Sequence record: OR455461.1
Length of the DNA stretch: 64,000 bases
Strand: one strand, 5' to 3'
Source of the DNA: Staphylococcus phage AH12
The position numbers were made by a program, and so were the translations under genes. Below the pieces are notes generated by a model. That model did not search any database, was not told where the DNA came from, and was given only the letters and a program-made list of their open reading frames with translations. This document shows positions 9,315 to 60,403 of the stretch, in pieces; position 1 is the first letter of the stretch, and every line of letters starts with the position of its first letter.

Positions 9315-9800
9315 TTATTTAAAATGATTTCTAACTTTAAAATCTTTAACTTCTTTACAATCTTCTGAGATAATTTCAAATATATCTTCATTATCAAAAT
9401 TGAATTTTTCTAATGGAATATTATAATATTTCATATTTATATCTATCGTATCACATATTCTTTTATAAAATAAATAATAAAGATCAACTGAAGAGTCTGA
9501 TATGACAAGATTTTGATTTGTTAAATTTATATTTTTAGGTATAAAAGGGGCACTATTAAAGTCCCAATTAATATGTGTAGCTAAATTATGATTAGTAAAA
9601 TCGTAAATTAAGAAAAAATCTAGTTTTATATTACCTTCTTCTTCATCATATAATTCAATCTTTTTACCATCAGATTTATAAAAAGAAAAATTTTCTTTTT
9701 TAAATTCATTATTGAATACATAATAGAAAGCATCGTCTTTTCTATGAATATCATTAACTTCATATATTTCATTATTTACTTTATCTTTGTAATATATCAT
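9315..9800 (-). CDS. hypothetical protein; tandem duplicate of 9818..10297, short version of family tag (..VKDFKVRNHFK)
   Basis: 161-aa ORF. Its first ~30 aa and the underlying DNA are nearly identical to the neighbour. Confidence 0.55.
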   Translation of the reverse strand: MIYYKDKVNNEIYEVNDIHRKDDAFYYVFNNEFKKENFSFYKSDGKKIELYDEEEGNIKLDFFLIYDFTNHNLATHINWDFNSAPFIPKNINLTNQNLVISDSSVDLYYLFYKRICDTIDINMKYYNIPLEKFNFDNEDIFEIISEDCKEVKDFKVRNHFK

Positions 9801-9817
9801 TATCTATTTCAGCTCCA

Positions 9818-10297
9818 TTATTTAAATGTATTTCTAACTTTAAAATCTTTTACTTCTTGACTATTTTCATCCAATATTTCAAATATATCTGTATTACTAA
9901 ATTTAAAATCTTTTAATTTGACATAGTACTTTGATAATTTTTGATCTATCTCACATATATTTTTATATATTAAATAATAGAGATCCTCAGCAGAATCACT
10001 TGAAATAAAATTTTGACTCATTAAATTAAGTTGATGGCCCATTAAAGGTACATCTTTATTCCATGAAGGAATTAATGTCGTTTCATAATTAATAAAATTA
10101 TAACGAATATCAAATCTATATTTTAAAAATCCATACTCTTCATCTATAAATTCTACTATTTTGCTACTAGAAAAATACATATCCTCAAATGTTGGTAAAA
10201 ATTCGTTTCCAAATACATAATAGAATGCATCATCACTTCTATGAATATCATTAACTTCATATATTTCGTTATTTACTTTATCTTTGTAATATATCAT
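9818..10297 (-). CDS. hypothetical protein; tandem duplicate of 9315..9800 (..VKDFKVRNTFK)
   Basis: 159-aa ORF. Confidence 0.55.
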   Translation of the reverse strand: MIYYKDKVNNEIYEVNDIHRSDDAFYYVFGNEFLPTFEDMYFSSSKIVEFIDEEYGFLKYRFDIRYNFINYETTLIPSWNKDVPLMGHQLNLMSQNFISSDSAEDLYYLIYKNICEIDQKLSKYYVKLKDFKFSNTDIFEILDENSQEVKDFKVRNTFK

Positions 10298-10311
10298 CTA
10301 TTTACCCTTCC

Positions 10312-11022
10312 TTATTTAAAATTTTCTTTAATTAAATATTTCTTAATTTCTTTTTCATCAGTTATTTCTTCAGATATAGAATACAGATAATTTTTAATAT
10401 ATTCCATAAAAGGTATAAACGCTCCATCTATATTAATTGACATATCTTTTAATATATAGTGAATCAGACTGTCTAAAGACTTATATTCATTATCTTCTAT
10501 ACTCTCTAAATATTCTTTTTTAAAATCTACTCTAAAAGATATATCTTCATCAATTAGCATTATTCTTTTAATTGAGTATTTCTCACTGTCACAATTATCT
10601 AATACATTTTTTACCTTTTGAGGGTTTTTTATTTTTAAAACAATTTGAAATATTCTTTCATTATCAATATTATCATAAAAACAAACAATTGAAGCCTTTA
10701 TTTTATCAGAATCATTACCCTTAATTACCATATTTTTATCTTTTCCAGTTAGATTTTTAAGATTCATAATAATATCTGAGTAAATATAAAAATGGAAATT
10801 CATCTGCATATTGTTTACTAGAAAACTACTATCAAGAAATTCAATATTCTTTTGATTTTTATTTGTTATATGTTCCATAGCTTTATATAAAAATCTACCA
10901 TTATCAATTTCATTATTATTTAAAGAAAATTTTTGATTAGTTATTGTATTATTGTATACTTTTATATTATTCATTTTATCCACCTCAATTTTATAATATA
11001 TATTTAAATAAGCATTTTGCAT
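10312..11022 (-). CDS. hypothetical protein; C-terminal-tag paralog family (..EEITDEKEIKKYLIKENFK)
   Basis: 236-aa ORF. Confidence 0.55.
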   Translation of the reverse strand: MQNAYLNIYYKIEVDKMNNIKVYNNTITNQKFSLNNNEIDNGRFLYKAMEHITNKNQKNIEFLDSSFLVNNMQMNFHFYIYSDIIMNLKNLTGKDKNMVIKGNDSDKIKASIVCFYDNIDNERIFQIVLKIKNPQKVKNVLDNCDSEKYSIKRIMLIDEDISFRVDFKKEYLESIEDNEYKSLDSLIHYILKDMSINIDGAFIPFMEYIKNYLYSISEEITDEKEIKKYLIKENFK

Positions 11023-11079: not shown

Positions 11080-13246
11080 TTATTCTTTAGTTAAAGAATA
11101 TAAAGCTTGTACCATATATTTATGATAATTAGACTATATCTTATGATATTTAAATCATTTCCATATTTAGTCGTTGAACAACTTTTATTAAGTTGATGCT
11201 GATTAGTTTTGTTTTTCCAGCAATTAATGAAATTTATTGAGAGCATACAAACTTACTCTCATTACCAACTCCACGTATACTATTTCCTGTGTAGTTTAAG
11301 TAATTAGTTTTCTTATTAATAAGTTTATCAGCTTCTTTATTTGCCTCTACAGACCATAAAGAGCGTATTGAAATCATATCCATTTTATATACATGTATTT
11401 ACATATAATTAGACTATATCTTCTTTAGTAATATATTTAGTCGTTGAACAACTTTTATTAAGTTGATGCTGATTATCTTATAGATTTTCCAGCAATTAAT
11501 ATTATTTAATGATGGTAATATGAAATTTTGCCATCAAAGTCAGCCGTAGTATTAACTTCATATAAATTTTTTATGAAGACTAGACTATATCAAACACTTT
11601 TAATTAAGTGTAATTATATTTAGTCGTTGAACAACTTTTATTAAGTTGATGCTGGTTAGATTTGACATTCCAGCAATTAATAATTTTTTGACATTATATC
11701 GCTATAATGAAAGGTCATTAAAATAGCCAAGTGCTTGAGCATATGAATTGTGTATGATTGCAGTATCTAAGAAAATATCTTCATCAATAGGATATTCTCT
11801 TACTACTTTAGGGTAATCTTTTAATACTATATCATCTAAAACTATTTCTGGAATAGTATCAACAGTAGTTAATATTTTAATTTTAGCAGGGGCTACGTTC
11901 AAGAAATTTTCGCATTTATTATATTTATATAATACTTATATAAATTAGACTATATTATATACTATTTAATAGTACCATTGCATTTAGTCGTTGAACAATT
12001 ATATTTAATTGATGCTGATTAACTTTATTAATAGTATTTCAGCAATTAACAGTGTTTATCGACTTAAATCACTTTAAGAAGCGACCATTTTATTAATCGG
12101 ATATCTTGAATACATAACATGCTTATCTTCTACTATTTCAGTTGCAGCGATATAAAGTAAATCAATTACAGTAAAATCTCTACCTAAAGTATTTTCAAAT
12201 AATTTAACTTTATGACGTTTACCTTCTCTATCATTTACATATATAGGACTAAATCTTTCATTAGGATCTTTAATAAAAAATTCTAGCATATTCTTAATTT
12301 CTTTATCATCAAATTGTTCATAAACTTCCTCTAATGAAAGCTCTTTATCTCCTTCACCTGTAGCTGTTTGGAAAGCATCTTTATGAAGTTCAATAAAATC
12401 AATTATATACTTATTAAAGAATGGTAAGAATAATGTAACTAATTGAGTTAATGGTACACCTAACTCACCAAACTCTATCTGCATTTCATCCCATTTATTC
12501 GAATTAATTTTAGGTGAAGAAATAACTGCACGAGTACTATTATCTACTGTTTTACCCAATATACGTTTTTGCATAAAACCAGTTTTACCTGATAATTCTC
12601 CTGAAGTAAATTTCTGATATATTTCAAATAATGTATTTTGTATATTATATTTAGTACTGTTAGCTATAAATCCGAATGAATTAAAACTAATAGCATCTAC
12701 AGAACGTATAATAGAAGAATACATATTATTAACTTCTTCAGTATCTTGAATTTCTCCTGAAGTTTCATTAGGATTAAAGTCTCTATAAAATGCAGGTATT
12801 ACTAACCATTTATCTACAAATATTTTTTGTTTATCCGTATTCTTAATCATATCAATTTTTTCAGATCTAATACGAGAATCATTCTTTCTAAATTTTAAAT
12901 CATCAAATACTTCATATAAGAAATTCAGTCCAGTGTCTCCATCTTCTGAAGGAACTAATTGACCTTTTTCTACTTTAAAATACTCTGAACCCTGAATACA
13001 TAGTTCAATATTTTTATCTAAATCTTTTAATGCTTTATAAGCTACCGGATTAAGGTATTTATCCTTTAAATTAATCCAACCTAAATTATTTTTTCTTTCA
13101 GGAGTACCTATCAAACCAAATATGTCATATGAAAATAAACCATCATCTTTTGGTAGTATACCCGAATCAAAAAATACAGGGTTGGTTACTTCTTTAGCAT
13201 TAGTGTCAGTTATGACTTGTTCAATATCTATCATATCTACTTTCAT
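11080..13246 (-). CDS. multisubunit RNA polymerase beta-prime-like subunit, N-terminal/catalytic-loop part. Split gene: join(13246..12096, 11912..11717, 11544..11530, 11380..11255, 11112..11080), about 506 aa
   Basis: Exon A contains GKTGFMQKRILGKTVDNSTRAVI, matching the beta-prime [23 protein letters not shown] motif. Predicted spliced product reads ..GYFN-ADFDG-DMISIRSLWSVEANKEAD.., matching ..[26 protein letters not shown]... Exon E gives ..VQALYSLTKE, matching VVLGLYYMTR. Exon borders were derived from P1/IGS pairing and reading frame. Confidence 0.7.
11113..11254 (-). ncRNA. ultra-compact group I intron R4 (142 nt) in the RNAP beta-prime-like gene
   Basis: P1 is exon GAGAGU paired to IGS GCUCUC with terminal U.G, 10-nt loop. 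Same core. Ends ..AUAUAUG before GUACAAGCU (V Q A). The first intron nucleotides encode KFVCSQ* when unspliced. Confidence 0.7.
11381..11529 (-). ncRNA. ultra-compact group I intron R3 (149 nt) in the RNAP beta-prime-like gene
   Basis: Same core. Hairpin UGAUGG(C)-15 nt loop-CCAUCA(A) forms P1. Ends ..AUAUAAAAUG immediately before GAUAUGAUU (D M I). The 5' splice site appears to follow C of GGC, facing A in the IGS. Confidence 0.6.
11545..11716 (-). ncRNA. ultra-compact group I intron R2 (172 nt) in the RNAP beta-prime-like gene
   Basis: Same conserved core. 5' exon ends ..UUUUAAU (Asn). GNRA hairpin CAUUAUA-GCGA-UAUAAUG lies in the P1 loop. Tentative IGS is GUCAAAA. The terminal G sits just before GCUGACUUUGAUGGC. 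Exact 3' splice site is tentative. Confidence 0.55.
11913..12095 (-). ncRNA. ultra-compact group I intron R1 (183 nt) in the RNAP beta-prime-like gene
   Basis: P/Q/R/S cores present (UUAAUUGCUG, AAUCAGCAUC, GUUCAACGACUAAAU, GAUAUAGUCUA). P1 is exon CGAU paired to IGS GUCG with U.G at the splice site. GNRA-capped hairpin CUUAAA-GUGA-UUUAAG. Ends ..AAUAAAUG. The reading frame is restored (AU + C = Ile). Confidence 0.7.
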
Positions 13247-16336: not shown

Positions 16337-18626
16337 CTAAAATTTAACCATATTTGATACGAAAGAACTATTTGAAGATTCTAACACTTTAACTCCAATA
16401 GATTCAATAATATCTTTACCTGGTTTAATGTGATCTTCTATCATTGAATCATAATCAATAAATGGTCTAAACTCTTCAGGTATTTTATTTCCTTCTACAG
16501 CAATTACATTCATTCCATTTTTAACTAATCTTTCGTTTCTAAATATTTCTCTAAATTTATCTAATAATTCTTCATCATCAACTTTATCTTTAATATCTCC
16601 AAATGATTTAATATTTAACTTAACCATTAAGATATTTGATGGAAGAGATATTTCTTTATCTGGATACATTAAATTCCATGATAAAGCTGCTCTATAATTC
16701 ATTTGTGTATAAGGATCTTTATATACTTCTGCATTATTAGCTTTACCAGGTTTTAAGAATTCAATATCACCATTCTCTAATGATTTTTTAATCATCTCTT
16801 CAATTTCTTTATATTTACGTATAATACCAATTCTATCAATACCAGTTTTATTTTCTAAAATATCTTTCTGTAGTATTTCAGTGAATAATTCTCTAATACG
16901 TTTATTAGTATTAACTTTTCTAATAGCCATACCTTTAACATCTAAGTCTGGTGGTTGAACTAAATTACCTTCTTGTTGTATTACTGATGATGCATAAGTT
17001 TTCTTTTTATCTGTTGTTAATTGTTTGTCAAGTAAAACGTTTATACTTATATTTAAAATATAAGACTAGACTATATCATATTCTTTATTATTAAGAATTA
17101 TTATATTTAGTCGTTGAACTTCATTATTGAAGATGCTGATTAAGTTTATTTTGTCTCAGCAATTAATAATATTTACTAATACACATTACTGTATACTGGA
17201 GCATTTACATACTCATTTTTCATTGATATAACACCTAAATGTTCATCTTCTAATCCTAAATCTTTACAGAATCTATGATAAGATAATTCTAGTAATTTAG
17301 TTATTTGATAGTTAATAATAGATATATTACCTACACGTTGTTCTAATTTATCTTCTAAACCATTTTCTGCAATAGGGAAATCTTCAGGTTTCTTTTCTTT
17401 CATTTTTTGATATAATGGATCTAAATGTACAAAGTTACTATCTGTCTTTAATATTATATTTTTAAATATAAAATAGACTATATCATATACTCTTTATGAG
17501 CATCATTATATTTAGTCGTTGAACAATCATATTGATTGATGCTGATTAATTTAATAAATACTTTCTCAGCAATTAATAATGTGAATCAACTTAAATTACT
17601 TTAAGCGGCGACCATGTTATCATAATCGATTGTAAGTACACTTCTACGTTTTTTATAATTCATTCTATACATTCTATTGTAATCTTGATAATTATAGATA
17701 ACCCAGTCTTCTAATATATCAAATAATTCATCTAATAATGGAATCATATCTTCAGGTGGTTCATTTGGATCTAAGAAATCTTCTCTACCAGTCATTTTAC
17801 TAATTTTATTATCAAATATATCTGTATGATCTAATAAACCATAAAGATTATTTTTAAAATAAACTCTATTTTTCTCATCTTGAGTTAAATTACTAAAGAA
17901 TTCTTTCAAATCATTTTCTTCATCTTCAGAGAAATTATATTCTACGTTATCCAATAAACCTTTTAATATTTCATTATCAGTAGGAACTGAATTTATCTTA
18001 ATATCGTGTTCTTTATATTCTTCTTGACATATTCTTACGATATAATTATAAATCTCACTAATATTCATAAAGAATATTTTACTTCCTATAAATCTTTCTA
18101 AAGCTATTGCTGAAGTAGTAACAATATCAACACCACTATATGTGATAGCAGGGCCTGAATAAGGATCATAGAAAATACTATTTCCTTGTATCATTGCACC
18201 ATAGTAACTATTAGCCAAAATCTTAATTGTTTTTTGCTCGTTCATATATTTATGATATTTAATATCGTCTACACCTTTACTTATAAACATATTATGTTTA
18301 GCTACTTTACGTGAGTCAATGAAGTCTTTTAACATCTCTGCATTTAAATTTTTTCTTTGTGATTGTGGTTGATAAATCGAACCTGATCCAGTTACTATTA
18401 AATTTGAATTAATAACTGTACGTAATAAAGAATCAACATTCATTTCTTGACCTGATACTTCTGTCATGACAGGTTTAACATTTTCTTTTACAAATTCTCT
18501 ACACTCTTTTAATATTTCTTCTTTATCAAAATCAGGATTATTCTTTTGAACCATCCATACCAATTGTTCTAAGTATCCGGTTAAAGCTCTTTTTCTTTCT
18601 TCTTTATTCTTTAATTCTGTTGTCAT
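16337..18626 (-). CDS. family-B DNA polymerase, C-terminal catalytic (palm/fingers/thumb) part, encoded as its own gene. Split gene: join(18626..17625, 17445..17193, 17037..16337), about 651 aa
   Basis: Exon 1 has motif B KILANSYYGAMIQG (Kx3NSxYG). Predicted splicing joins ..VLTID to TDSNFV.., giving motif C IDTDS (cf YGDTDS). Exon 3 has the KKxY motif DKKKTYASS. AGGAGGT RBS lies before the ATG at 18626. The N-terminal exonuclease part and motif A are not in this gene. Confidence 0.7.
17038..17192 (-). ncRNA. ultra-compact group I intron (155 nt) between polB exons 2 and 3
   Basis: Same core. P1 is exon GUAU plus intron AC, paired to IGS GUGUAU with U.G at the splice site. Hairpin CUUAUAU..AUAUAAG precedes the 3' end ..AUAAACG. 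The frame is restored (U + UU = Phe). Confidence 0.6.
17446..17624 (-). ncRNA. ultra-compact group I intron (179 nt) between polB exons 1 and 2
   Basis: Same P/Q/R/S core. P1 is exon CGAU paired to IGS GUCG with U.G. GNRA hairpin CUUAAA-GUAA-UUUAAG. Closely related to intron R1, same 5' flank AUGGUCGC..CUUAAAGURAUUUAAGUYGAU. Ends ..AUAUUAAAG. The unspliced frame reads YDNMVAA*. Confidence 0.7.
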
Positions 18627-34050: not shown

Positions 34051-34983
34051 ATGGCAATTACAAGAAGAAAAGTAACTAATGAGACTAAGGATTTAAGTGT
34101 ATTGGAATCAGCAGAATTAAAAGTAAGTGAAGAACAAGGTTATAAAGGTGATGTATTAACTTTTGAAATTGAAACAGTTCCAAAAGAATATGATAGAAAG
34201 AATTTAGTATTAATTCCAGAAGATGATAATGTAATTAAAATTAATTACAATAAGAATGAAATTAATATTGCTTCTGATGAATTAAAAGATGTAAGTATCA
34301 AATTAAAGGATATTCCAACAGATACAGAATATGATAATGTAACTATTACAGCTTCAGGAATTAATCCTGATAAAGAAAAAGAAATTAAAGAGGAAAAAGA
34401 AGAAAAAGAAGTTAAAGAAGAAAAAGTAGAAGAAGTTAAGAATCCAGTTAAAAAGAAACCTAGTACAAAAACTAAAACTAAAACAAATAAAAAGGATGAT
34501 AATAAAATGGAAAAAATTAAAGTTAATCGAGTTAAAAAAGACGTTAAGAAAACTGCTAAAAAGGAATACAGTGATAAATCATACACTAAAGATGAATTGT
34601 TAAATGATTTATTAACGAATCTTGTAGATGAATCAGGAGATGCTGCATACAGTAAGAAAGAATTAAAAGATATTATAACATTAGCAGATTCATTACGTAC
34701 ATCAGCTTTAAAAGATGGTAAAACAATTTCAATTAATAACATCAACTTTACACGTAAATTACAAAAAGCTCGTATTCATGCACCTAAATTAGATACAGTT
34801 AAATCACCTTCATATGTAACTCCACATGTAGTTATGCAAGCTAAAGTTGAATCTGATGATAAAAAAGTATTAAAAGGTGAGAAATTATCTGCTGATAAAT
34901 TTAAAACAGTAGATGGTGAAGAAATCGATTTAAATAAAGTTAATGAAGAGTATGAAAAAGAGTTTAAAAATAAATTTCAATAA
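34051..34983 (+). CDS. hypothetical Lys/Glu-rich protein
   Basis: 310-aa ORF. AAGGAGAG RBS. KEKEIKEEKEEKEVKEEKVEEVK low-complexity segment. Confidence 0.5.
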   Translation: MAITRRKVTNETKDLSVLESAELKVSEEQGYKGDVLTFEIETVPKEYDRKNLVLIPEDDNVIKINYNKNEINIASDELKDVSIKLKDIPTDTEYDNVTITASGINPDKEKEIKEEKEEKEVKEEKVEEVKNPVKKKPSTKTKTKTNKKDDNKMEKIKVNRVKKDVKKTAKKEYSDKSYTKDELLNDLLTNLVDESGDAAYSKKELKDIITLADSLRTSALKDGKTISINNINFTRKLQKARIHAPKLDTVKSPSYVTPHVVMQAKVESDDKKVLKGEKLSADKFKTVDGEEIDLNKVNEEYEKEFKNKFQ

Positions 34984-58052: not shown

Positions 58053-60403
58053 GATTCACATTCAACAATACCTTGAGAATTTTCATCATGGTCTGGTGAA
58101 TAAATACGAGTATAATACATAGATTTAATACCTTTACTGTAAGCATAGTTACGTAATCTACTAATATCACGAGTAGTAGTTTCTTTATCTAAAGAATCTT
58201 TTTTCCATTCATACAATTCAGGATCAAGTTCATTCATTAAATAAATATTCATAGAGATACCTTGATCAACATGATATTGAGCTTCTGAATATAAATCAAT
58301 CATATCACGCATATCTAATTGATAAGCATTTTTCTTAAAGTAATCAAAGTTATCTGGTGTAATACCTGGTGCTGGATAGAAAGTAGTACCTGTTTTACCT
58401 TCTACACGTTCTTCAATTAATTCAACAATAGGGTGAATTGAAGGTGATACTTCTCTAACATAACCAATAGAACCATTAGGTGCTACAGCTAATCTATTTT
58501 GATTGTATAAACCATCCATAACGATATTATTTCTTAATTGTTCCCAATCACTATCAGATGGAATAAAGATATCTTCAAATAATTCTTTAACTTTTTCAGT
58601 ACGTGGTTGAATATTTTTACCAATATAACGTTTATCAAAGTAAGAACCATCAGCATATTCAGTTTTTTCAAATAAATAGAATGATTCATCTTTTTCTTTA
58701 GCAATTTTATTTGATTCAACTAACGTCCAATAGTTTAATAGCATGAAATAAATATTAGTGAAATCTTTAGATTCTTCTGATCCATATTGAATATGATTTT
58801 CAGCTAAATAAGTGTGTAATCCCATTGCACCTAAACCAACTGTATGGAATAAATCATTAGCTTTCTTAACTGTAGGTACAGCTTCAATATTAGATTTTTC
58901 TGCTACTGAATTTAAACTTCTTAACATAGTTCCAACTGATTTACCAAAGTCTTCTGATTTCATTAAACCAGGTACGATAGTTGAAGCTAAGTTACATGAA
59001 ACATCTGTTCCTGTTTTAACATATTGTTGATTATCGTCAACTAATGAAGGGTATTGTACTTGCAGAATTTCACTACACAAATTACTCATTTTAATTGTAC
59101 CATGACTAATTGGATTAGCTCTATTAGCTGTATCAATATTAATAATATAAGGATATCCAGATTCTTGTTGTAATTTACTAATAGTAGTTTCTAAATCACG
59201 AGCATACATTTTCTCTTTACCAATACGTTTATCATCTACAAAGATATCATAGTAAGTATTAAAGTCAATACTATCGAAATCTAAATCATAATATTTTTTA
59301 ATATCATATGGACTAAATGTATATAATGATTTATTTTCTTTAACTAATTGGTAATATTTATCTGGAACTGTTAAACCTAATGAAATAGTTTTTAGTCTTA
59401 CTTTCTCATCAGCATTTTCTTTCTTAGTATCTAAGAATTTCACTACATCTTTATGGAAAATATTTAAGTAAAGTGCACCTGCACCATTTCTTTGCATTTA
59501 TATTAACTATATGAAATTCATATAGATTAGACTATATCTTATACTATTAATAAGTATTATTATATTTAGTCGTTGAACAATCATCTTGATTGATGCTGAT
59601 TAAGTTTATAAACTTTTCCAGCAATTAATATTATTTATACTGAGCCATTAAAATTAACCCAGTTGATTTACATATGATAAAGTATCTTCAAATACTTTCA
59701 TAACTGGAACTACTCCTGAAGCAGCACCTTCAACACCTTTAATTGGATCATTATCAGCACGTAGATTACTTAAAGATACTCCTATTCCTCCACCACGTTT
59801 ACTTAATTGTGCCACATTAGAGATATTTCTATAAATAGATGATAAAGAATCCTCCATAGTTAATAAGAAACAACTTACTAACTCACCAGAACGTACTCTA
59901 CCTGCATTAAGAAATGTAGGTGTAGCTGGTTGGAAAGTACCTGTAATAATTTCATTAGCAATATCTCTAGCTAATTCTTCATCACCGTCAGCTAAGTATA
60001 AAGCTACAAATAAAATTCTATCTTCATATAGTTCTAATAAGATTTCCCCTGCATCATCTTTCATTGCATACTGTTCATAGAATTTTTTAGCTCCTAATAA
60101 ACGAGTAAAACGATGTTTATAAGCCATTAATTCTTTCATTAATCCTTTAATAAATTCAAAATTATAGTTATTGATCATATCTCCATCAATATAATCATTA
60201 TTAACTAAGTAATTAATTTTTTCCTTATATGTTTTAAAATATCTTACATTCTTATTAACTTTTTCATCGAAGTATTTACTAACAGAAGCTAACTCAAATT
60301 CTAGATCTAAATTACCGTCTTTTAATTGTGAACCTCTTGAATTCAATTCATTGTATGAATAATCTTTGAACTTTTCTGAGTTTAAGTCTATTTCTTTTGT
60401 CAT
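58040..60403 (-). CDS. nrdE: ribonucleotide reductase class Ib alpha subunit. Split gene: join(60403..59657, 59494..58040), about 733 aa
   Basis: Exon 1 has ..TFQPATPTFLNAGR..GELVSCFLL..SKRGGGIGVSLSNLR... Exon 2 has ..QRNGAGALYLNIFH.. and the C-terminal Cys pair (CESCSI). Predicted splicing gives the seamless ..NQLG-QRNGAGA.. junction. Confidence 0.8.
59495..59656 (-). ncRNA. ultra-compact group I intron (162 nt) in nrdE
   Basis: P1 is exon CUGGGU paired to IGS GCUCAG (C-G, U-A, G-C, G.U, G-C, terminal U.G), 11-nt loop. P/Q/R/S cores AAUUGCUGG, AAUCAGCAUC, GUUCAACGACUAAAU, AAGAUAUAGUCUA. P9-like hairpin CUAUAUG..CAUAUAG. Ends ..AUAUAAAUG. The ATG of the downstream ORF is actually the intron 3' end. 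Confidence 0.8.

Follow-up and report, generated by a model that had tools for sequence, protein, structure and literature searches.

A candidate natural C·A pairing at the 5' splice site of a miniature group I intron in the virion RNA polymerase gene of a Staphylococcus jumbo phage

The beta'-N gene and its four inserts

This study concerns R3, a putative miniature group I intron in the virion RNA polymerase beta'-N gene of Staphylococcus phage AH12 (sequence record OR455461.1), of which a stretch of 64,000 nucleotides (nt), hereafter the window, was analysed. The window is about 95% identical to the Staphylococcus jumbo phages Machias and PB50, has more distant matches in LY01, MarsHill, Madawaska, S6, PALS_2, SA1 and Bacillus phage AR9, and is of the AR9-like Staphylococcus jumbo phage type.

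Using a multiple alignment of the window with Machias, PB50, S6 and SA1, we placed the boundaries of the sequences that interrupt the gene. In S6 and SA1 it is uninterrupted, measures 1512 nt and encodes a protein that reads ...YSRYPIENFLNV...ALGADFDGDMISIR...GNESVQALYSLTKE; relative to these two, the coding sequence of the window is broken by four inserts, R1 to R4. The features of the gene are as follows, an arrow (↓) marking a splice junction here and below.

11080..13246, minus strand: virion RNA polymerase beta'-N gene, from annotated homologs in related phages
13246..12096, 11912..11726, 11544..11530, 11380..11255 and 11112..11080, minus strand: exons of this gene, from the multiple alignment
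11913..12095, minus strand: R1, 183 nt; 5' splice site CCGAU↓, its U·G formed with GUCG; P2 hairpin present, last base G
11545..11725, minus strand: R2, 181 nt; insert absent from Machias and PB50
11530..11544, minus strand: exon 3, a 15-nt micro-exon GCUGACUUUGAUGGC coding for ADFDG, between R2 and R3 (alignment, spliced reading frame)
11381..11529, minus strand: R3, 149 nt, between GGC (Gly) and GAU (Asp); absent from the S6 and SA1 genes; 31.3 bits with the Rfam model RF00028 and 96 bits with the family model described below
from 11380, minus strand: start of exon 4, GAUAUGAUU (direct reading)
11113..11254, minus strand: R4, 142 nt; GAGAGU↓ with U·G to GCUCUC and a terminal G

Excision of all four inserts in silico yields an open reading frame (ORF) of 1512 nt, as long as the intronless genes of S6 and SA1 and colinear with them. 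The predicted spliced protein of 503 amino acids aligns with that of S6 without gaps, 427 of the 504 aligned positions (stop counted) being identical (85%), and its Pfam RNA_pol_Rpb1_2 match covers the DFDGD region. Exons 2, 3 and 4 are predicted to read GCACUUGGC-GCUGACUUUGAUGGC-GAUAUGAUU once ligated. R3 interrupts the metal-binding DFDGD motif itself (ADFDG↓D), and its exact removal is therefore needed by the gene.

Small exons are also found in LY01, which carries micro-exons of 14 nt and 9 nt (locus L003, 4888-4901 and 5083-5091) flanked by introns of 384, 181 and 157 nt, and where five introns lie within about 350 nt of coding sequence.

The 5' splice site of R3

The minus strand reads ...GCU GAC UUU GAU GGC↓AAAAUUUCAUAUUACCAUCAUUAAAUAAUAUUAAUUGCUGG...UAUAUAAAAUG↓GAU AUG AUU..., so that R3 starts with AAAAUUUCAUAUUACCAUCAUUAA at 11529 and ends with ...UAUAUAAAAUG at 11381. 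The elements that define its splice sites are the following.

11530..11536, minus strand: P1 5'-exon strand UGAUGGC, of which the last exon base is C11530 where a U is expected (alignment, direct reading)
11510..11516, minus strand: P1 guide strand A-CCAUCA, with A11516 opposite C11530 in the column that holds G in LY01 and MarsHill (ortholog alignment)
11517..11523, minus strand: P10 guide UCAUAUU, adjoining the P1 guide and pairing with bases 1-7 of exon 4
11374..11380, minus strand: P10 3'-exon strand GAUAUGA, codons Asp-Met-Ile (direct reading)

The initial annotation had proposed a C instead of a U at this 5' splice site, facing an A of the guide, and the evidence from orthologs, guide and terminal G agrees with it. 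As it had also described, the P1 strands UGAUGG (11536..11531) and CCAUCA (11515..11510), 15 nt apart, pair perfectly, with C11530 opposite A11516 as the exception. The first two intron bases, A+1 and A+2, are able to pair with the UU that lies 5' of A11516. When the whole guide, 5'-UCAUAUU-A-CCAUCA, is set against the ligated exons UGAUGGC↓GAUAUGA, 13 of the 14 positions are paired and the sole non-pair is the C·A; at least 13 pairs were reached by only 218 of 100,000 shuffles of the first 41 nt of R3 (about 0.2%). In the P10 guide, a C of the window is a U in Machias and PB50, where G·U replaces G-C. Nucleotides 1-36 of R3, all upstream of P4, contain no G at all, and a U·G pair is therefore impossible in any register. 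The P1 exon strand falls entirely within the 15-nt micro-exon.

Orthologs at the identical site of the same gene allow the origin of the C·A to be traced. LY01 and MarsHill have an exon ending ...GACGGU↓ opposite a guide G-CCGU, and the window, Machias and PB50 have ...GAUGGC↓ opposite A-CCAUCA. In the alignment, window R3 reads UUUGAUGGC↓AAAAUUUCAUAUU-A-CCAUCA-UUAAAU and the LY01 ortholog reads UUUGACGGU↓AA, then three gap columns, then UUUAUAUU-G-CCGU-A-UUUAAAU. As the U·G of LY01 and MarsHill occupies the same columns, both members of the pair have been substituted, C·A taking the place of U·G. Position -4 likewise differs on both strands, with C-G in LY01 and MarsHill and U-A in the window, Machias and PB50. 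The Gly codon at this site is GGU in S6 and GGA in SA1 and so is free to vary, which indicates that coding requirements do not impose the C. Three distinct genomes that differ elsewhere within R3 (window, Machias and PB50) preserve the C·A; two of them are propagated phage isolates. In this lineage P1 has two more exon-side pairs (G-C and U-A), and this greater length may be a compensation for the weaker cleavage-site pair.

To place this junction among its relatives, the inserts of PB50 were mapped against the assembled intronless S6 genome. Twelve of the 14 mapped sites have a U at the 5' splice site and a terminal G, the others being the C of R3 and a G at one odd site; in the window, five of seven introns follow a U. 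The C·A is therefore an exception and not an artefact of junction calling and, U·G being the rule of the family, it is a derived state.

Alignment to S6, SA1, Machias and PB50 fixes the R3 insert to within one base. The GGC junction had been put forward in the initial annotation as the only one preserving the frame; in fact two do so, GGC↓...G↓GAU and GG↓C...U↓GGAU, and what distinguishes the first is that it alone gives a terminal G, as found in every other mapped family member. Cleavage after G11531 (GAUGG↓C), with R3 ending in U (...AAAAU↓GGAUAUG), would make the C·A the first pair of the intron. Its product, GAU GGG GAU, would likewise code for DFDGD, which makes it the sole alternative that keeps both frame and protein. 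A one-base shift between the U·G and the splice site is on record for group B IStrons (PMC4227781), and sequence comparison suggests the same shift for the terL-3 intron of PB50 and the 384-nt intron of LY01. We nevertheless consider this placement very unlikely: R3 would then end in U while all mapped family members end in G, P10 would be displaced from the first exon base beside P1, and the canonical register (U↓ and G↓) is the one that suits the LY01 and MarsHill orthologs. GGC↓GAU is thus preferred because of its terminal G, its P10 running from exon base +1 and adjoining P1, and the canonical register of the orthologs.

The sole frame-keeping junction with a terminal G is AUGAG↓UAAAAAGGCUC for the PB50 terL-3 intron (34271-34441, locus L147) and GGAG↓UAACUUACGCUCC for the LY01 intron (L003 4504-4887); both place the 5' splice site after a G, so that the intron begins with the U of its U·G, as in group B IStrons (PMC4227781).

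Further introns at the DFDG↓D site were searched for with the pattern TTTGAYGG-N(66-96)-GTTCAACGACTAAAT, which gave no match in IMG/VR and none in GTDB genomes. The same pattern returned 12 matches in JGI metagenomes, and we rejected all of these as unrelated introns that contain TTTGATGG by chance. A regular-expression search for DFDG↓D introns over 120 IMG/VR loci found only one intron, which lies elsewhere in a different beta' gene. Both polymerases, virion and non-virion, have a hot spot of insertion at the catalytic motif: the non-virion beta' gene of PB50 (locus L133, about 1290-1320) contains an intron with a homing endonuclease directly after GAU GGU, at the same DxDG↓D position as R3 and preceded by a U, and that of Machias contains instead two mini-introns, at G↓A and AD↓Y.

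A family of miniature group I introns

The core of R3 was read from family alignment A1, which gathers 21 different copies of the window, Machias, PB50, LY01 and MarsHill, and in which the helices P3, P4, P6 and P8, and P7 crossing P3, were scored.

11499..11504, minus strand: P3 5' strand UAAUAU (A1 columns 6-11 with 80-85; changes on both sides in 5 of 6 pairs)
11467..11494, minus strand: P4 (UGCUGG/UCAGCA), J4/5 AAA, P5 (AUCU/AGAU) and J5/4 AA
11449..11465, minus strand: P6 hairpin CAACUU-AAUAA-AAGUUG (changes on both sides in 5 of 6 pairs)
11438..11448, minus strand: J6/7 UUCAAC and P7 5' strand GACUA, the guanosine-binding helix (invariant in 21 of 21 members; RF00028 consensus GUUCAaAGACUAAA matched)
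11423..11434, minus strand: P3 3' strand AUAUUA, then a vestigial P8 CUAAAG (single C-G closing UAAA)
11412..11422, minus strand: J8/7 AAGAUA and P7 3' strand UAGUC (invariant in the family; P7 crosses P3 in a pseudoknot)
11381..11411, minus strand: P9 hairpin (-4.1 kcal/mol) and 3' tail to the terminal G11381

Across A1, 98.8% of the core cells are paired, and 17 of the 28 pairs show changes on both sides. None of 500 shuffles reached the observed value, and sliding the partner strand by 1-3 columns lowered the paired fraction to 25-50%. The inserts share the signature strings AAUUGCUGG...UCAGCA, GUUCAACGACUAAAU and GAUAUAGUCUAA. An Rfam scan of the whole window at gathering threshold, which is 50 bits for RF00028, gave no match, and the introns were detected only in E-value mode, R3 scoring 31.3 bits (E 8e-6), R4 28.4, R2 20.4 and R1 20.1, with alignments that run end to end for R2, R3 and R4 and are partial for R1. 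Taken together, the pairing, the covariation and the covariance-model matches indicate that the inserts are real, structured group I-type RNAs, unusually small ones. The Azoarcus intron, of about 205 nt, is commonly counted among the smallest self-splicing group I introns, and those of the window would be markedly smaller.

Individual members lack different helices: P2 is missing in R3 and R4, P5 in R2 and R4 (where a 14-nt A-rich loop caps P4) and P8 in R3, in which a single C-G stands for the 5-6 base pairs (bp) of the other family members. In P3 of R1 (12050-12057 and 11973-11979) the window has a C·A mismatch, CACUG/CAAUG, where Machias and PB50 have U-A (CAUUG/CAAUG).

A covariance model built from A1 found exactly seven copies in the window, namely R1 to R4 and three others.

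17624..17446 (179 nt) and 17210..17038 (173 nt), minus strand: introns of the DNA polymerase gene (covariance model)
59656..59495 (162 nt), minus strand: intron of the ribonucleotide reductase gene (covariance model)

The first of these, at 17446-17624, is of the R1 type and divides the DTDS catalytic motif (...LTID↓TDSNF...) of a family B DNA polymerase. It ends in a G, and at AUCGAU↓ its U·G with GUCG is canonical; the second intron of the same gene lies 236 nt downstream. Using nhmmer, we found 22 copies in the assembled PB50 genome and none in S6; the LY01 genome has 33. The family model also gave 131 matches in IMG/VR loci (L008-L107), with compact cores of about 100-135 nt, often several per few kilobases and in uncultured contigs of 200-400 kilobases (for example L040, L027, L089 and L014). 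The distribution of this mini-intron type is therefore wide among phages with large AT-rich genomes and extends beyond those of Staphylococcus.

The structure of R3 also bears on whether it is removed at all. If it were retained, the gene would give separate polypeptides, one ending in ...ADFDG plus a short read-through and another, MDMISIR..., whose start would be the AUG that the insert's last three bases spell. The in-frame AUG-GAU-AUG ORF at 11383..11234 is a separate coding sequence in the PB50 annotation, and the RNA polymerase subunits of jumbo phages are naturally split into several genes. Such a split, however, would hit the metal-binding DFDGD loop, the AUG has no Shine-Dalgarno sequence ahead of it, the homologous genes of S6 and SA1 are continuous, and R3 has a complete covarying group I core with a terminal G and a matched guide; we regard retention as highly improbable.

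The second member with an unusual 5' splice site is R2. Machias and PB50, which lack this insert, read ...CUUGGU GCA GAU..., and the insert must therefore begin directly after GGC, with UAUUUUAAU intronic. Its closest paralog lies in the non-virion beta' gene of Machias, between GGU and GCC of ...GMG↓ADYDGD (with the intronless S6 gene as reference), where the 9 nt homologous to the start of R2 (UAUAAAGGU) are intronic, and a second relative lies in the virion beta gene of PB50. All three have the same layout: GG(U/C)↓, about 9 nt, (G/A)CC, UUU, the hairpin CAUUAUA-GNRA-UAUAAUG, and UCAAAA.

11726, minus strand: C11726, the last base of the R2 5' exon, which ends GGC
11715..11713, minus strand: R2 guide A11715-C-C, upstream of P2
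11709..11692, minus strand: R2 P2, CAUUAUA-GCGA-UAUAAUG

The Machias paralog has GGGU↓...A-G-CCU, the PB50 relative UGGU↓...U-G-CCU and R2 of the window UGGC↓...G-A-CCU. Judged by this comparison, R2 probably carries a C·A at the splice site itself, GGC facing A where the paralogs have GGU facing G. This contradicts the P1 suggested for R2 in the initial annotation, UUUUAAU with GUCAAAA and an internal C·A: both strings exist, but the UUUUAAU region is intronic and UCAAAA follows the GNRA-capped P2. The complementarity of GUCAAAA to GAUUUUGAU in the Machias exon appears to be a coincidence, since paralogs whose exons are unrelated also conserve UCAAAA behind P2. Splicing of R2 after UAUUUUAAU, which would add Tyr-Phe-Asn and give an FNADFDGD of canonical appearance, was rejected in view of the paralogs and of the alleles that lack the intron.

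The case of R2 is less clear-cut than that of R3, as a U(+1)·G pair, U11725·G11716, adjoins its C·A. It is a minor possibility that both sites of R2 are shifted by one base (GGCU↓...ACGG↓); a U·G and a terminal G would then be in place, at the price of a Ser where ADFDGD has its conserved Ala. Another option is that R2 may be like group B IStrons, whose splice site lies one base 5' of the U·G. The likeness would end with this shifted geometry: no ORF, and hence none of IS200/IS605 or IS607 type, is present inside its 181 nt.

With a C·A seen twice (in R3, and in R2 relative to its paralogs) and two relatives predicted to splice one base upstream of their U·G, it is conceivable, although we hold it doubtful, that 5' splice-site recognition in these mini-introns of 142-183 nt, of which a genome has about 22, is less strict than in textbook group I introns.

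Splicing with a C·A pair and relation to known introns

R3 lacks the U·G expected at a group I 5' splice site. The remaining group I features are present, namely the terminal G (G11381), the P1 and P10 guide, the core helices with their pseudoknot and an in silico excision that restores the ORF, and R3 was therefore filed as a variant group I member. From the comparisons above, we estimate a probability of roughly three in four that R3 functions as a group I intron, in a strongly reduced form and with a C·A in place of the conserved U·G.

Its splicing could proceed as follows. The guide 5'-UCAUAUU-A-CCAUCA-3' would first pair with the 5' exon (P1 UGAUGG/CCAUCA, with AA/UU on the intron side), and this pairing would present the phosphate after C11530 to the guanosine bound in P7. 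In the position of the U·G, the C·A would probably take the same wobble geometry, as A+·C, and keep the helix distortion that marks the cleavage site. After the first step, UU and the remaining guide would pair with the 3' exon (P10 GAUAUGA/UCAUAUU), the terminal G11381 would enter the G site, and the exons would be joined as GGC↓GAU, restoring ADFDGD. As to its history, the C·A may have arisen from U·G by two substitutions, likely through a Watson-Crick intermediate such as a GGC allele with a G guide. According to PMC5769748, which cites Doudna et al. 1989, C·A+ and G·U are isosteric, and the former can stand in for the latter in P1.

Several points weigh against this interpretation. The GGC↓GAU junction is placed by comparison of DNA sequences. 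Nearest-neighbour folding of the R3 P1 gives a 6-bp helix of -5.5 kcal/mol, compared with -9.3 for the P1 of LY01, and gives no credit to the C·A. At 31.3 bits, R3 misses the Rfam gathering score of 50, a shortfall that we attribute to its missing peripheral helices; as it is without a proper P8, unaided self-splicing is not assured. The three genomes that share the C·A are close relatives and thus represent one evolutionary event and not three. Finally, the exocyclic amine of the guanine in G·U was considered to play a part in 5' splice-site selection (PMC1920249, citing Strobel and Cech, 1995/96); an A·C pair has no such amine, so that a cost in activity is expected and a dependence on pH is plausible.

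In an alternative explanation, the C·A is a slightly harmful variant due to drift and no functional equivalent of U·G, R3 splicing poorly alone, needing a phage or host protein or the abundant near-identical cores, and its low yield being tolerated. The extreme reduction of R3 would fit, as would the roughly 22 related cores per genome. The C·A variants of the Tetrahymena intron were reportedly less active than U·G, which also counts for drift. The phages of this group grow poorly at 37 °C (bioRxiv 10.1101/2020.12.14.422802), with no known link to splicing. Against drift, a double rather than a single change argues for selection restoring a wobble geometry, the lengthened P1 looks compensatory, and the gene is needed for the RNA polymerase packaged in the virion; on balance we find it unlikely. 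A working R3 with a C·A at its cleavage site remains the reading that we compare with known systems below.

Phage group I introns such as those of T4 td, Twort, SPO1 and AR9 (RF00028, IA-like) have the same core sequences AAUUGC..GCA, GUUCAACGACUAAAU and GAUAUAGUCU, the same topology from P3 to P9 with a P3/P7 pseudoknot, a guide and a terminal G, and they too insert in conserved catalytic motifs of replication and transcription genes. Intron-split RNA polymerase genes were already known in AR9 and MarsHill-like phages (bioRxiv 10.1101/2020.12.14.422802), and the publications on these phages relied on protein alignment to predict exons and gave no analysis of intron structure. The window introns differ from them in being 142-183 nt long, in having no homing-endonuclease ORF, in numbering about 22 per genome and in lacking P2, P5 or P8 in individual members; R3 differs further by its C·A.

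A likeness to the splice site of R3 is found in the engineered Tetrahymena variants of Doudna, Cormack and Szostak (1989), which, as cited in PMC5769748, have the same exon C opposite a guide A at the cleavage site, and the same rationale, that a wobble-shaped pair and not the bases U and G marks the site. Those are laboratory mutants of a large IC1 intron, whereas the C·A of R3 occurs in nature, persists in three phage genomes and is connected by a natural double substitution with an ortholog that has U·G. A natural C in place of U, as in R3, is the subject of Hur and Waring (1995), going by the title cited in PMC6468297; the pair there is a Watson-Crick C·G, and the title raises selection after translation, on the protein, as a possible reason. 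In R3, by contrast, the C lies at a free third codon position (GGN), and its partner has changed to A so that a wobble-type mismatch is kept. Splicing after a base other than U was demonstrated experimentally for the group B IStron BcISt1, a bacterial group I ribozyme, where it occurs after G (Tourasse et al. 2014, PMC4227781); IStrons have a U·G shifted by one base and an IS200/IS605-type transposase module, and R3 has neither a U·G nor an ORF. Our searches of the open-access literature turned up no natural C·A described for the 5' splice site of a group I intron. From these comparisons, the natural C·A appears to be new, natural C·G and IStron splicing after G being already on record.

If recognition in these mini-introns is indeed as loose as considered above, their C·A sites would be the first A+·C wobbles known from nature, with an evolutionary record, where a group I intron is cleaved, and splicing of the virion RNA polymerase mRNA could be pH-sensitive or cofactor-dependent. 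The wobble-shape idea has so far been based on laboratory mutants, and the R3 orthologs form a natural matched pair at one site, U·G in MarsHill and LY01 and C·A in Machias, PB50 and the window, separated by a double substitution at a free codon position. They could be used to measure the cost of a C·A, the pH dependence of splicing and the compensation afforded by the length of P1. Junctions of this kind will be misplaced or overlooked by annotators and intron predictors for which a U must precede the intron.

The public annotation of the beta'-N gene is incomplete (window 11234-11383, minus strand; locus L001, 3001-4833; locus L002). The joined coding sequence of Machias has three exons and ends in a read-through of R4, so that R4 and the last 11 codons are missing from it, and the annotations of PB50 and LY01 give exons as separate proteins, one of them starting from the AUG with which R3 ends. 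Three tandem paralogous ORFs of 161, 159 and 236 amino acids lie downstream of the beta' gene, at 9315-11022 on the minus strand, with common N-terminal (MIYYKDKVNNEIYEVNDIHR) and C-terminal (EVKDFKVRN.FK) ends and a repeat spacing of about 500 nt.

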